From an uncultured bacterium (GTDB lineage Bacteria > Chloroflexota > UBA5177 > JANWHV01): a DNA stretch of 64,000 nucleotides. The position numbers were made by a program, and so were the translations under genes. A model generated the notes under the pieces. The model was not told the origin of the DNA, did no database searches, and saw nothing but the letters and a program-made list of their open reading frames with translations. Shown here in pieces: positions 24,269 to 29,488 of this stretch (the stretch's first letter is position 1; each line of letters starts with the position of its first letter). The stretch covers positions 992,001 to 1,056,000 of the forward strand of contig CAWHAE010000016.1 of assembly GCA_963827235.1 (NCBI GenBank), given 5' to 3'.

Positions 24269-27070
24269 TTACTCCGTAGCGTCCGTGGCGGAAGCAGCGA
24301 AACTGCCACGGGCTGACAGGGCGAGGGCGACCACCCCCTCCCGCGACAATGCCTCTCCCTGCTGCCAGGCGGCGGAAAAACCGTCCTCGCCAAGCGCCGC
24401 GACGGTCGCGGCGAGCGTGCGATCGTGGTCATGTCGGTCCGCAGGCGGAAGTGGTGCTCCGACGGTCCGGCGCAGTAACGACGCAGCCGCTAACAGCTGC
24501 GTTGCCCCATTCGGCTGCCCATGCGCGCACAGCACCCCGGCTACACCTTCCAGGCACTCGGCCAAGCAGCGCAGATCGCCTATCGCCAGAGACGCACGCA
24601 GGCCATCCTGGTACAGGACCAGGGCGCGACCTGCCTCACCCAGGGTCCGTGCAAGGTGCGCCAGTCCGTGCTGCGCGACAGCGATGCCGCGTCGATCGCC
24701 CAGAGCGCGACGCAGCGCCAGACACTCCTGATAGTGGTCCTCGGCGCGCCCGTAGTCACCCTGCGCGTACGCGACGGCGCCAAGATTGCCAAGCGAGAAG
24801 GCCATGCTCCATCGGTCCTCCATGTCACGCCGCAGCGCCAGACTCTGCTCCGACAAAGCCGCCGCCCTTTGCAGGTCTCCCACGTCTCGGGCCACGCTGC
24901 CCAGGTTATTGAGGGAGAGGGCGATACCCCATTTGTCGCCGAGATCTCGGCGCAGTGCCAGGCTCTCCTCGTGCCTGGCAACTGCGTGCGCGTAGTTTCC
25001 CTGGTAACGGGCTACCTCGCCCAGATTGTTGAGCACAGAGGCAAGGCCGCGCTTGTCGCCCAACGCTCGCTTCTTCGCCAGGCTCTGCTCATATAGGCTC
25101 GCTGCACTGGAGTAGTCGCTTTGGTCCAGCGCGACGTTCCCCAAATTGGACAGGGCAACAGACTCGCCGGCCTCGTTGCCCAGGCTACGCTGCAGGCCGA
25201 GCGCTTCCTCGTAGAGCGCTCTGGATCGCGCGTAGTGACACTGGTATCTCGCCACGCTGGCCAGCACGTTGAGCGACGCGGCGATGCCGGCTGTGTCGCC
25301 CAGGGAGCGGCGCACGCGTAGACTCTCGTCGACCCTGAGCGCGGCGAGTGCATAGTTGCCCAGCTCGGTCGCCAACACGGCGGCGCCATGCAGCGCCGCG
25401 GCACGCACGGCGGGCAGCACGGCGCTGCCGTCCTGCTCAGCCTGTGCAAGCAGTTCCTCCAGCCAGCGCTGCCCTTCGCTCAGGTATCCGCGCACCTGCC
25501 AGAATCGCCATAATGCCCCCGCCAGCCGCAGGCCCAATTCCTCCCGGCGCTCTGCGGGATCCCCGCCGCTCTGGAGGGCCCACTGCAGTGCCGCGCGCAG
25601 GTTGCCGATCTCTGCCTCCAGCAGGTCCAGCCAGGTCACCTGTACGCTGCCGGTCAACTGTGCTGCTGCCGATTCCGCCAACGCCAGATAGTGCGCGGCG
25701 CGGCGCTGCTGCAGCACCGCTTGCTCGCCGGTCGTCGCCAGGCATTCCAGCCCGTACGCACGAATGGTCCCGATCATGGTGAAGCGTGCGGCGCCGCCGG
25801 AACCCTCTTCCGACTGCAGCAAGCTCTTGTCGACCAGCGAGGAGAGCGTCGCCAGCGCCGCAACAGCCTCGTCGCCGGACGGAGCACAGACGGCCATGAC
25901 AGCATCGAGCTCGCAGCCGGCGACGAACACGGCCAGACGCCGAAATAAGGCCTGCTCGCCACGGTCAAGGAGCCGATAGCTCCAGGCTACGGCATCGCGC
26001 ATCGTCTGCAGGCGCTGTGGGTGGTCGCGCGGCCCGTTTGCCAGCACGTGGAGCGTGGGGTTCTGCCAGGCTCCGGTGCGGCCGCGGGTGCCGGTCAGCT
26101 GTTCCAGTAATGCCTGTGGCGGCAGCAGTTTGATGCGCGCAGCTGCCAACTCGATGGCCAGAGGCAGGCCATCCAGGCACGTGCATATCTCGGCCAGGGC
26201 GCGCGCGTTGCCGGGAGTGATCTCGAAGTCGGCTCTGACGGCTCGTGCCCGATGGAGGAACAAGGCCACAGCTGCATAACGGCCTAACGCTTCGGCAGCA
26301 GGTAGGTGGCGGAGGTCCGGCAGGGCCAACGGTGGCACCGCATACTCCTGCTCCCCATGCAGGTGTAATGCCGCGCGGCTTGTCACGAGCAGGTTCAGTC
26401 GCGGGCACGTGGTCAGCAACTCGGCCAACAGCGGAGCGGCCGACAGCACGTGCTCGAAGTTGTCGAGCACAAGCAGCAGCTGCCTGTGCCGCAGATACTC
26501 CTGGACGGTGGCCAGCGGGGGTTGCTTATCGGTTTCACGCAGCTCGAGCGTCCTGGCGACCGTCGTGACCACCAGCCGAGCTTCGGTCACCGCGGCCAGC
26601 GAGACGAACGCCACCCCATCGCCATACAGCGCCCACGCAGTGGCCGCTGCCTGGAGCGCGAGACGCGTCTTGCCGACGCCACCGGGACCGGTCAGCGTGA
26701 GCAAGCGTACGTCGTCTCGCAGCAACAGTCGTGCCACCGCGGTTTCATCCTGCTCTCGCCCGATCAGCGGCGTCAGCGGTTGCGGTAGCGTGCCAGGAAA
26801 TGCGGCAATGCGAGTTGGAGTGAGTGCAGGCCCGTCGACCTGGCGTGCCGCGGCCTCAAACGCGGCACGAGCTTCGGCAGCTAAGTCCAGCGCCTGCGCG
26901 AGCAAGTGCACGGTGGTGGGTCGCGGCAGGTGCGGCAGTCCACGCTCCATGTCGCTGATCGCCCGTGCACTCAGGCGTGCTCGTTCAGCCAGCGCTTCCT
27001 GCGTGAGGCCGGCAGCGCTTCGGTATCGGCGCAGCAGGTGGCCGAAGCTCCAGGACTGCGGCGTGGCCAT
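24269..27070 (-). CDS. XRE-HTH + NB-ARC/STAND ATPase + TPR repeat protein
   Basis: [17 protein letters not shown], Walker A GPGGVGKT, Walker [20 protein letters not shown], many ~40-aa TPR repeats. Confidence 0.92.
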
Positions 27071-27301
27071 GGTGCGTCTCTCTCCGTCCCGGCATGCGCT
27101 GAGCGCGGCCGGCGGTGCGCTGGAACGCGGGAACCGTCGATCAGATCATAGCAAAGCCCGGCCGACGGTTATCGGAGCGGAGAAGGGCACGAGACGGATC
27201 AGAATGTGACCTATTATGTGGCAAATCTCGTGGTCACTGCCGGCTCCCCGACCCAAGAATCAAATGAGGTGTAGGTCGATCTGCGGAGAGGAGCGTGATC
27301 C

Positions 27302-27685
27302 TTGCAAAGCCAGGAACGCCGGGTGCTCATCGTCGACACAGTCCACAGCCTCGCTGCCAGCCCGTACGGGGATGGCGTTGCCGTCCTGACCGACGCAGAT
27401 TGCGAGGAGAATTATGTCCAGTTCCGGAGCCTGCCAAACGGGCGCGCCCTGTGTGAGGTGACCGCACGCCGGTGGGGTGGCCGGCTTGTCCCCCTTACGG
27501 AACAAGAGATCGCAGCGCTCATGAGCCTGGGATTTGGGCGCCCGGATCCCAATTTGGGGCAGGAGTTGAACCTGAGCCAAGCTGAGGCCATCGCCGACCT
27601 GTGCGAGCAGGCATTCGCGATCCTCGCGTCGCCAGCCACGTTCACGCTCGGGAGAGTGATTCGATTGCTGCCCTCAGCAGGATAA
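27302..27685 (+). CDS. Hypothetical protein, TY-Chap (T3SS chaperone/YbjN-like) candidate
   Basis: NYVQF...LCEV...LTEQEIAALMSLGF...PN...AIADLCEQAF pattern; TTG start after a GAGGAG RBS. Confidence 0.5.
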   Translation: MQSQERRVLIVDTVHSLAASPYGDGVAVLTDADCEENYVQFRSLPNGRALCEVTARRWGGRLVPLTEQEIAALMSLGFGRPDPNLGQELNLSQAEAIADLCEQAFAILASPATFTLGRVIRLLPSAG

Positions 27686-27758
27686 TCGGCGTGCATCAGG
27701 CTCTGCGCGCAATCTTCTTCCACAGCATGGTGCTCGCAGTGCCAACCAATAGGGGGGA

Positions 27759-28895
27759 ATGATGGACCCAAACAGCCGACCACGAACAAAGGCGCGCATG
27801 CTGCCGGTGGCCCTCGTGCTTATTGCAGCCACCGTGCCGCTGCCCACCGTTCCCATGGCCGGAACGCACTCAGGCATGGTATGGGCAGCCGGAGCCTGCC
27901 CTGGCGACATCAGCAAGGTCAGTGCCAGCAGCCTGTCGGGTGAGAGCGTCCCGGTCGCGTACACCGGCGACTGGAACGTCTACTACGCGCTCGGCAACAT
28001 CGCGTTCAGCCAGCGAACCAAGGCCGGTGGCGGCATGGTCGACGAGTCAATCGGACACGAGGCCCTCAACTTCACGTTCAACGTGGACAAGCACGGCTAT
28101 GTGAGTGGCAAGGGTAAGGCCATCTACCACTTCGACGTCAAGGCCTATTCCATCGCCTTTCCCGACCAGGTCGGCGATCACGCTTACCTCGTGGGCGCCA
28201 GACAGAGCCGCGCTTTCGCGGTACAAGGGAGGGCGTGTCAGGACGGCAAGATCCAGGTCGAATCGACGAACACTGCCGATCTACTGCTTTACGACGGCGC
28301 CAAGCAGACAAGCATCGGCGCCTGGAACGTGTTTCCACCGGATGACGGGCAGATCACGGAATCAGACAAGCACCTCTCTATAGTCGCTAAGACGTATGTC
28401 AAGCAGATCAGGATGCAGATGAGCTGGAAAGCCAGCAAGTGCATCACCTTTGATCTCGGTGAGCACCGCGACGGCGGCGGGAGCACAGCGACGAGCGAGA
28501 CGCAGGCCAATGGTCCCACGGAAGAGATACCGATCACCAGCACGAGCATTATTACCTACACCAACCCCAACGTAGTATTCAAAACCACGCCAGACGATCC
28601 CTACACCCACCAGATGCAAGCGAGCGTGACCGGGCCGCTGTCCACGCTGGCTGCACTGGTGATGCAAGAGTGGCCCAACAAGCTGCACCCGGTCAAGCTG
28701 CGCGTCACCGCGGCCTGGGGACCACCGGGCTCGCACGGGGCACAGTCGTTCCACTACTCCGGGCGCGCGCTTGATCTGACAACCTCCGATCAGGATCAGC
28801 AGAAGTACGGTTGCCTGGCTGGCCTGGCCTACGAAGCAGGCTTCAACTGGGTGTTCTACGAGAACGCCCTGCATGTCCATACTTCCGTGCGCTGA
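27759..28895 (+). CDS. Secreted protein with a C-terminal Hedgehog signalling (HH_signal / Zn DD-peptidase fold) domain
   Basis: Hydrophobic N-terminal signal; C-terminus NPNVVFK...VMQEWP...KLRVTAAW...[15 protein letters not shown]...[20 protein letters not shown]...HVHTSVR matches Hedgehog-N. Confidence 0.9.
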
Positions 28896-28942
28896 AAGGC
28901 GCCACACCTTCTTCGGGTGGACTATGAATTGTCAGGAAGGAC

Positions 28943-29488
28943 ATGGACATGCATCGCGCCATAACCCTGGCTCTAGTCTTGCTGTCTGTTCTCGGCTACA
29001 CCCTGCCAGCCGCGGCAGAACCATGGCGCCTCTACGACAACAGCACATTCGGCTACAGTCTCTCCTACCCAACCGACTGGCGGCAGATCAGTCAATCGAG
29101 CGTCGATCTCGAGCTGAAGAGCGCAGATTCCGGCGCGACCTTTATCGCCCACGCCGAAAGCACGACGAGCGTGCCAAAGCTTGCCGATTTACGAGGGGCA
29201 GTGAGCAGTATGCTGTACGCTGCCGGCGTGCCGAAAGCCGACGCCATCCACTACACGACCCAGGTGCTGCATCGCGTGACGTTTGCTGCAGGCAGCGTCG
29301 ACGTGCGGGGCAGCGGGAAAGCCGGCACCGTCGATGGGCTGGTGGCATACCGTGCTCACGCCATGTATTTCTTCGCCGCGTCATTGGTCAGATCGATCAA
29401 CGGCAAACCACTCCCGGCTGCCACTGCCCAGGCACGCGTGCTGCAGCGCATGGAGGCCAGCATCACCGTCGCGGGACCCAACAGGTGA
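28943..29488 (+). CDS. Secreted PsbP-like fold protein
   Basis: Signal peptide ending AAA, then WRLYDNSTFGYSLSYPTDW; ends LQRMEASITV. Both motifs are typical of PsbP/Mog1-like domains. Confidence 0.6.
   Translation: MDMHRAITLALVLLSVLGYTLPAAAEPWRLYDNSTFGYSLSYPTDWRQISQSSVDLELKSADSGATFIAHAESTTSVPKLADLRGAVSSMLYAAGVPKADAIHYTTQVLHRVTFAAGSVDVRGSGKAGTVDGLVAYRAHAMYFFAASLVRSINGKPLPAATAQARVLQRMEASITVAGPNR

Follow-up and report, generated by a model that had tools for sequence, protein, structure and literature searches.

Bacterial relatives of the Hedgehog (Hh) signalling domain are the natural material for asking whether this domain has peptidase activity and which substrate it would act on. Here we examine one such relative, encoded in a window of 64,000 nucleotides (nt) from an uncultured Chloroflexota bacterium (assembly GCA_963827235.1), which covers positions 992001-1056000 of a contig of about 1.22 Mb. 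A single open reading frame (ORF) on the + strand of this window, 27759..28895 (378 codons and the stop TGA), encodes a protein that ends in a Hedgehog N-terminal (Hh-N) domain with its zinc site complete and all six of its calcium-ligand residues replaced. We think it reasonably probable that the product is a zinc peptidase that was acquired horizontally, is exported, does not depend on calcium and probably cleaves peptidoglycan, with lysis or scavenging of foreign walls as its more likely role. The parts of the gene are listed below with their equivalents in mouse Sonic hedgehog (Shh); the roles of the two stacking histidines are those given in PMC8052667.

27759..27887, + strand: putative N-terminal export signal or anchor, residues 1-43, judged from residue composition
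27888..28436, + strand: orphan N-domain, residues about 44-226, beta-rich, with Cys47 and Cys160 conserved and low model confidence
28437..28892, + strand: Hh-N zinc peptidase domain of the bacterial Hedgehog-like (BacHh) type, residues 227-378
28587..28607, + strand: first calcium loop without ligands (T277, P278 and T283 at Shh E90, E91 and D96), loop length unchanged
28710..28727, + strand: second calcium loop without ligands (A318, G321 and P323 at Shh E127, D130 and D132), loop length unchanged
28734..28736, + strand: H326, stacking or transition-state His (Shh H135)
28752..28754, + strand: H332, zinc ligand (Shh H141)
28773..28775, + strand: D339, zinc ligand (Shh D148)
28860..28862, + strand: E368, putative general base (Shh E177)
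28872-28874, + strand: H372, partner of H326 (Shh H181)
28878..28880, + strand: H374, zinc ligand (Shh H183)

The ORF ends where the Hh-N fold ends, the stop codon follows directly, and there is no Hint/Hog domain. The choice of start codon is uncertain: ATG triplets at 27759 and 27762 are candidates, as is the ATG at 27798 preferred by the gene caller, whose product (P0002) begins at M14, and a run of G at 27752-27757 lies immediately 5' of the gene.

The domain is a genuine member of the Hedgehog-N (Hh/LAS) group, distinct from generic M15 peptidases. Pfam HH_signal matched the whole protein at 110.9 bits (E 6.7e-32; cut-off 22.1) over residues 262-376, corresponding to profile positions 51-161 of 161, whereas Peptidase_M15_3 scored 13.7 bits (E 0.073) on a 134-residue piece, under its family cut-off of 23.2. 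VanY was not listed among the Pfam matches, the Pfam scan returned no Hint family, and a sub-threshold DUF7222 was the sole other Pfam family listed for the whole protein. All 25 distinct PDB sequences found by phmmer at E <= 0.01 were Hedgehogs (Ihh, Shh, Dhh or Drosophila Hh), the best being 3n1f_A (Ihh; E 6.9e-28). A preliminary description of this DNA had counted by hand 39 gap-free identities to Shh over the last 66 residues. We reproduced that count, with no relative gap, against P0024, a Macaca protein named 'Hedgehog protein' that serves here as the Shh-type reference domain; the C-terminal end (...HVHTSVR) aligns to Shh ...HIHCSVK. The further resemblance proposed upstream, of NPNVVFK and VMQEWP to NPDIIFK and VMNQWP, is seen in the phmmer alignment to Ihh. 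Over the full aligned domain, 52 of 113 columns are identical to P0024 (46%).

Structure prediction suggests a complete Hh-N globular fold that reaches beyond the 111 residues aligned by Pfam. An AlphaFold run on the six-row alignment of the protein's own family had a mean predicted local distance difference test score (pLDDT) of 30.6, and that model was unusable. A second run, on 89 rows that combined the family with the Hh-domain translations of 80 genome loci (the best 80 of 112 confirmed relatives, described below), gave a pLDDT of 87-97 at residues ~231-378 and of about 30-67 in the N-terminal half. Foldseek ranked Hedgehog N-domains at positions 1-37 (E 1e-13 to 1e-10), and VIA-align laid residues 227-378 of the model on residues 39-187 of Dhh (2wfr) with Z 24.9, a root-mean-square deviation (rmsd) of 1.4 A over 143 residues and 40% identity. 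Animal Hh-N structures in general (Shh, Ihh and Dhh; 1vhh, 2wfr, 3n1f) gave Z 24-25 and share the fold over 142-143 residues at rmsd 1.4 A and 39-41% identity. LAS/M15 wall peptidases have the same His-Asp-His zinc core, and with it a likely hydrolytic mechanism, but are distant matches in fold, at 13-18% identity: the first non-Hedgehog chains were the Streptomyces albus G zinc D-Ala-D-Ala carboxypeptidase (1lbu; Z 8.1), MepA (1u10; 7.8), the endolysin LysECD7 (8q2g; 7.1) and VanXYc (4mus; 6.2). Profile scores and superposition thus agree with the earlier judgement that the domain lies closer to Hh than to generic M15 peptidases.

Because the superposition spans residues 227-378, we take the whole Hh-N fold to be predicted. 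The extent first proposed for the domain, 28491-28895, starts inside it, since by the model the fold begins at about residue 227 (nt 28437). Family members share a conserved sequence at 227-267, a stretch as long as Shh 39-80 but diverged in sequence from it; as AlphaFold may draw here on Hedgehog structures already known to it, we infer rather than observe these first 40 residues of the domain. A fold assignment for the N-domain was dropped, as its matches to YceB, OmpA-type and other up-and-down barrels reached Z <= 6.6, which is inside the noise range stated for the tool.

In mouse Shh, zinc is bound by H141, D148 and H183, E177 is catalytic and H135 and H181 stack beside it, while E90, E91, D96, E127, D130 and D132 are the calcium ligands (PMC8052667). 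The binding of two calcium ions sets Hh and BacHh apart within the M15A subfamily, whose other enzymes have no Hh-type calcium site (PMC8052667). We read the equivalent residues from the alignment columns. The codons named in the preliminary description as encoding the zinc ligands and the putative catalytic Glu, at 28752, 28773, 28878 and 28860, are indeed those of H332, D339, H374 and E368. The zinc triad (H-x6-D ... H), the Glu and both histidines are kept in all five family rows with a whole Hh part (P0001, P0003, P0004, P0006 and L002) and in 80 of the 80 genome loci.

The calcium site is a different matter. None of its six positions is acidic here (T277, P278, T283, A318, G321 and P323), and within the family the count is 0 or 1 of 6, whereas all 80 genome loci have at least five (5/6 in 48, 6/6 in 32). 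Two or fewer acidic residues at these positions occur in eight of the 73 domain rows of our representative library; the family accounts for five of these rows, P0009 for two (each of its domains) and P0027 for one. The protein therefore has the zinc triad, Glu and His pair of the Hh/BacHh subgroup and fails to show its two-calcium site. Calcium-free ShhN has been modelled as the active state, with E127 as the switch residue (PMC4102407), and the equivalent of E127 here is Ala (A318). With every one of the six ligands substituted, the enzyme would be expected to act independently of the calcium switch found in Shh and in typical BacHh proteins. We thus regard it as a natural variant that carries the full zinc machinery without the calcium switch in a simple, apparently exported bacterial protein, one that could be used as a calcium-independent test enzyme and that adds a data point on the gain or loss of the calcium site.

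The same residues bear on whether the site is catalytic at all. The domain might be a non-catalytic binding or adhesion module, with a 'pseudo-active site' of the kind that Shh was for many years assumed to have, or it might act as a signal-like ligand; no peptidase activity was seen when ShhN was first tested (PMC4102407), and the Glu has been lost in some members outside the clade (P0027 has T, P0101 has A). We consider this very unlikely, as the six catalytic-site residues are kept in every family member across 53-81% overall identity, there is no Hint/Hog domain, and the Shh receptor-binding stretch, which lies before residue ~39, has no counterpart in the model alignment.

Bacterial Hh-like domains had been reported before, as the preliminary description noted. 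Roelink 2018 (PMC6027127) describes BacHh domains of ~145 aa at the C-terminus of larger proteins, with >50% identity to ShhN and with zinc and calcium ligands identical to those of ShhN, in 'about a dozen' species, and Jagers and Roelink 2021 (PMC8052667) predict them to be peptidoglycan peptidases of the M15A subfamily. Our searches recovered many more. An exhaustive HMMER search with the 134-aa piece returned 607 cluster representatives at E <= 0.001 (418 at E <= 1e-10), a mix of animal Hedgehogs and non-animal proteins, and scanning 185,579 species genomes with a pattern yielded 112 confirmed relatives. By record title, the best 80 of these come from Myxococcota (43), Pseudomonadota (13), Bacteroidota (5), Acidobacteriota (3), Bacillota (3), Actinomycetota (2), Planctomycetota (2) and two other phyla (1 each), with seven unresolved; two relatives are on plasmids. 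Bacterial Hedgehog-like peptidases are thus already known as a kind, and can now be seen to be fairly widespread.

Compared with these BacHh proteins, ours likewise has a ~150-aa Hh-N fold as the last part of a larger protein, with the chain finishing where Hh-N does (the domain stops <=24 residues from the C-terminus in 77 of the 80 loci), the same zinc triad, catalytic Glu and stacking histidines, and a similarly patchy, non-core distribution. It differs in the absence of acidic calcium positions, in a private N-domain, in a long stem of its own and in coming from a phylum whose 400 other sampled genomes gave no HH_signal match. The Pfam match is also weaker and shorter. In ten other proteins scanned, HH_signal aligned from profile position 11-19 (19 in 8 of the 10), at 148-200 bits in the eight single-domain proteins and at 232 and 320 bits in the two with two domains, as against 111 bits from position 51 here. 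From animal Hedgehogs, with which it shares the zinc site and Glu and the identities in the C-terminal core, the protein is set apart by the absence of a Hint/Hog autoprocessing domain after a Gly-Cys-Phe site and of a calcium site, by its model aligning only from Shh ~39, so that the N-terminal extension before it, lipidated and Patched-binding in the animal ligand, has no counterpart, by a bacterial-type export signal and by the unrelated extra beta-rich N-domain.

Measured against other bacterial domains, the phrase 'close homologue' of animal Hedgehog, used in the preliminary description, is too strong. The Shh-type domain has a median identity of 59.3% (range 39.6-69.0) to 43 other non-metazoan domains, and is 38-46% identical to our family, the present protein standing at 46%; its own median identity is 46-47% both to animal and to other non-animal domains. 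All six calcium-ligand residues have been lost, and the best tree does not put the family beside animals, although that placement was not rejected either. The picture of Hedgehog origins is unchanged, since closer bacterial relatives of Shh were already known and are far more numerous. What is new is a small, divergent sub-family without a calcium site, with a private N-domain and in a lineage that yielded no other instance of the fold; narrow literature searches found no paper on a bacterial Hedgehog domain lacking the calcium site.

Two relatives deserve separate mention. P0010, a 734-aa protein of Paulinella micropora (a non-animal eukaryote), combines FG-GAP repeats with a full HH_signal match (148 bits) and is among the nearest non-family relatives of the query; the Hedgehog fold may thus occur in a rhizarian. 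On a Bacillus tropicus plasmid record (L091:2022-5339), a 1105-aa 'hypothetical protein' has a C-terminal Hedgehog-like domain with 48% identity to the query, and is followed by a small ORF and then by a site-specific integrase; the order of genes recalls polymorphic toxins that have a partner gene.

A quick tree was judged unreliable when a constrained search beat the free one by 24.8 log-likelihood units. It gave way to a careful IQ-TREE analysis of 65 rows and 113 columns, made after removing both long-branch domains of P0009 and six vertebrate rows that were identical or nearly so. The tree is unrooted; a generic M15A root, at <20% identity, would be prone to long-branch attraction toward the family's long stem. 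Support for the family as a clade is 100/97; its stem measures 0.8 changes per column, and the family joins P0027 weakly (75/71). Animal Hedgehogs form a clade elsewhere (100/95), embedded in non-animal rows, of which P0057 is their weakly supported sister (91/69), and the backbone is poorly resolved. Holding the family and the animals together lowered the log-likelihood by 3.9, which the approximately unbiased (AU) test did not reject (p 0.42). The best tree therefore suggests a position away from animals, though a sister position would be compatible with the AU test. An alternative history, which we consider doubtful, is that the calcium-free state is ancestral and the family an early-branching line between the calcium-free M15A DD-peptidases and the calcium-regulated BacHh and Hedgehog proteins, or else, as the AU test did not reject that grouping, that the family is a sister line of its own to animal Hedgehog. 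On both versions the protein would be a naturally occurring 'always-on' peptidase of the Hedgehog fold, following the model of PMC4102407; if this were true, the calcium-free enzyme would be convenient for showing which bond the Hedgehog fold cuts.

Upstream of the Hh-N domain, residues 1-43 combine basic residues (R7, R9, K11, R13), a hydrophobic stretch at 14-33 (Kyte-Doolittle peak 2.38 at residues 14-28) and a small-residue region (PMA/G, VWA/A, AGA/C), an arrangement that is alike in the relatives P0003, P0005 and P0006 and that would suit a Sec signal or anchor. Four cysteines conserved in the family (47, 160, 228 and 352) are likewise consistent with an extracytoplasmic protein. The N-domain belongs to no Pfam, NCBIfam or PHROGs family. 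Profile searches with it found only proteins or fragments of its own family (four 'near' matches, all fragments, and five 'longer' ones, all family), a local hmmsearch of all fetched proteins and the 80 locus ORFs found nothing outside the family, and two ESM Atlas searches gave no usable match. Within it, similar 18-nt stretches at 27962-27979 and 28313-28330, 351 nt apart, encode TGDWNV and IGAWNV; they could be a trace of internal duplication or due to chance.

The family itself is small. A word-indexed protein search of 4153 candidates gave six proteins at E <= 0.001, all from metagenome sources: the window's own product, four full-length relatives (53-81% identity) and one fragment. A metagenome scan added one further locus, L002 (65% identity), and a scan of genome contigs with the whole-protein family alignment produced 51 pattern matches, none of them confirmed. 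In P0005 the N-terminal part is arginine-rich and looks out of frame where the others carry the conserved N-domain, probably through an assembly frameshift; because it looks frame-shifted, P0005 was left out of the N-domain profile.

How, then, might the protein work? The basic-then-hydrophobic N-terminus would direct it through the Sec pathway, and it would probably end in the wall or medium of a cell without a classical outer membrane. That location is probable because the genome has no matches to Omp85 or LpxC; controls for the two families matched in 7 and 4 of 14 known genomes, and the result suggests an envelope without a classical outer membrane. The orphan beta-rich N-domain (~44-226) leads straight into the LAS zinc peptidase domain (227-378), where H332, D339 and H374 would hold the zinc, E368 would activate water, and H326 and H372 would stabilise the transition state. 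As in M15A enzymes, the most likely substrate would be a D-amino-acid-containing peptidoglycan bond, either the stem-peptide D-Ala-D-Ala or a cross-link.

Domain fusions, fold neighbours and the excess of Myxococcota together point towards peptidoglycan. P0008 (= L020:2860-6240, from a metagenome-assembled genome of Polyangiaceae) combines two HH_signal domains with Amidase_2, Glucosaminidase, PG_binding_1 and DUF2272/CHAP, and P0057 joins HH_signal to a Pesticin (lysozyme-like toxin) domain; judging from these domains, each appears to be a wall-lysing protein with several tools. In the ORFs of the 80 loci, extra domains include VanY in four, Amidase_2 in two, and YkuD_2, Glucosaminidase, PG_binding_1, PG_binding_3, DUF2272, CHAP and YLATT in one each; apart from the YLATT match all are of a peptidoglycan theme, and the 41 Peptidase_M15_3 matches among these ORFs probably overlap the Hh domain itself. 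On a Pararhizobium plasmid the Hh-like gene adjoins a gene with an N-acetylmuramidase domain, in line with the occurrence of BacHh genes among lysozyme, amidase and M23 genes (PMC8052667).

A target other than peptidoglycan, such as a surface or S-layer glycoprotein or an environmental peptide, with the orphan N-domain giving specificity, appears unlikely to us. The long stem (0.8), the reshaped calcium loops beside the cleft and the unique N-domain suggest changed specificity, and a Shh/BacHh chimera failed to replace Shh (PMC8052667), so substrates do seem to differ within the Hh fold. Set against this, the additional catalytic or binding domains recognised in other bacterial Hh proteins all relate to peptidoglycan, and no protein substrate is known for any member.

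If the substrate is peptidoglycan, whose wall is cut? The producer's own genome (7.98 Mb in 21 contigs; completeness 95.9%, contamination 9.06%) was the only one with an HH_signal match among 61 relatives, with none in the four same-genus genomes, and again the only one among 401 genomes drawn from the phylum. Because the gene was found in none of the four same-genus genomes nor in the 400 others of the phylum, it cannot serve a core lineage function. It may, though, be the sole M15A-type enzyme of its genome, because Peptidase_M15_3 had no match in any of 41 lineage genomes (its own and 40 relatives). A role on the producer's own peptidoglycan in growth, division or sporulation-like processes, as a housekeeping autolysin or a DD-peptidase that remodels the wall, would fit with the fold neighbours MepA and Streptomyces DD-carboxypeptidase, which act on their own cell's wall, with the host-like GC content at third codon positions (GC3) of 0.78, inside the neighbours' 0.72-0.87, and with a setting among lineage-native genes. 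The distribution speaks against such a role, as does the lack of a wall-synthesis or division gene nearby, and we judge it improbable. The lack of other matches in the lineage, native neighbours and host-like GC3, taken together, fit a single gene that was horizontally acquired some time ago and is now embedded in a native chromosome. The concentration of relatives elsewhere in Myxococcota (43 of 80 loci) and the two on plasmids also speak for acquisition. We favour an accessory acquired gene over a core wall enzyme, more likely used in the lysis or scavenging of foreign cell walls.

The regional GC content leaves a mark of its own, being 0.585-0.625 over ~27.2-29.6 kb versus 0.65-0.69 in the flanks. 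This dip, the estimated contamination and the status as sole HH_signal match in the phylum sample would fit an assembly chimera or a contaminant such as animal DNA. We nevertheless hold such an origin to be extremely improbable: the gene lies ~1.02 Mb into its contig, it is an intron-less single ORF whose N-terminus is of bacterial type and whose N-domain is bacterial only, other metagenome assemblies supply five relatives built from the same two domains, GC3 is like that of the neighbours, both flanking gene families are present in relatives, and the tree position is outside the animal clade. One sequencing run was examined; it held 5% of sampled words, and its contigs gave no cover over 27002-29005. 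A tblastn comparison with 50,697 phage records gave no match that would indicate phage origin. The window contains no tRNA, no convincing flanking repeats were found near the gene, and a promoter and terminator scan there stayed at chance level. At the empty-site comparison, same-genus genomes gave paralogous matches only, at ~65% identity and without synteny.

Several points weigh against an exported, calcium-independent peptidoglycan peptidase. Export was judged from residue composition, and missing Omp85 and LpxC in a 95.9%-complete genome are no proof of the envelope type. Shh E127 hydrogen-bonds H135 (PMC4102407), and its loss here might affect catalysis. The N-domain might act as an inhibitory pro-domain, or might steer the enzyme towards a different substrate. 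The peptidoglycan link is one of guilt by association, and most BacHh proteins have no second recognisable domain; the portions of PMC6027127, PMC8052667 and PMC4102407 drawn upon here show activity for no BacHh protein, nor for Shh. There is no wall enzyme among the local neighbours, and L002, the one related locus with DNA, has no neighbour in common with the window (four neighbour proteins compared, no meaningful E-value); an integrase-like ORF lies upstream of it.

Around the Hedgehog-like gene, the nearest genes are the following.

24269-27070, - strand: 933-aa regulator with an XRE-type helix-turn-helix, an NB-ARC/AAA ATPase and TPR repeats, divergently oriented to the small + strand group of which the Hedgehog-like gene is part
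27302-27685, + strand: 127-aa YbjN/TY-Chap3-like protein, with a chaperone-like fold of the type III secretion system/YbjN type (Pfam TY-Chap3, 29.4 bits), 73 bp upstream of the Hedgehog-like gene
28943-29488, + strand: 181-aa secreted protein with a signal-peptide-like start and a weak PsbP-like match (NCBIfam E 0.025), 47 bp downstream

The 127-aa protein has matches in 2 of 20 relatives. The 181-aa protein was considered as a dedicated partner or immunity protein, and this was dropped: its family is lineage-native, with four copies in the producer's own genome and weak matches in 4/4 same-genus genomes. Further neighbours are an aldo-keto reductase, a TetR regulator and a short-chain dehydrogenase/reductase. 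The 933-aa regulator has many paralogs in same-genus genomes, seen as dozens of partial DNA matches.

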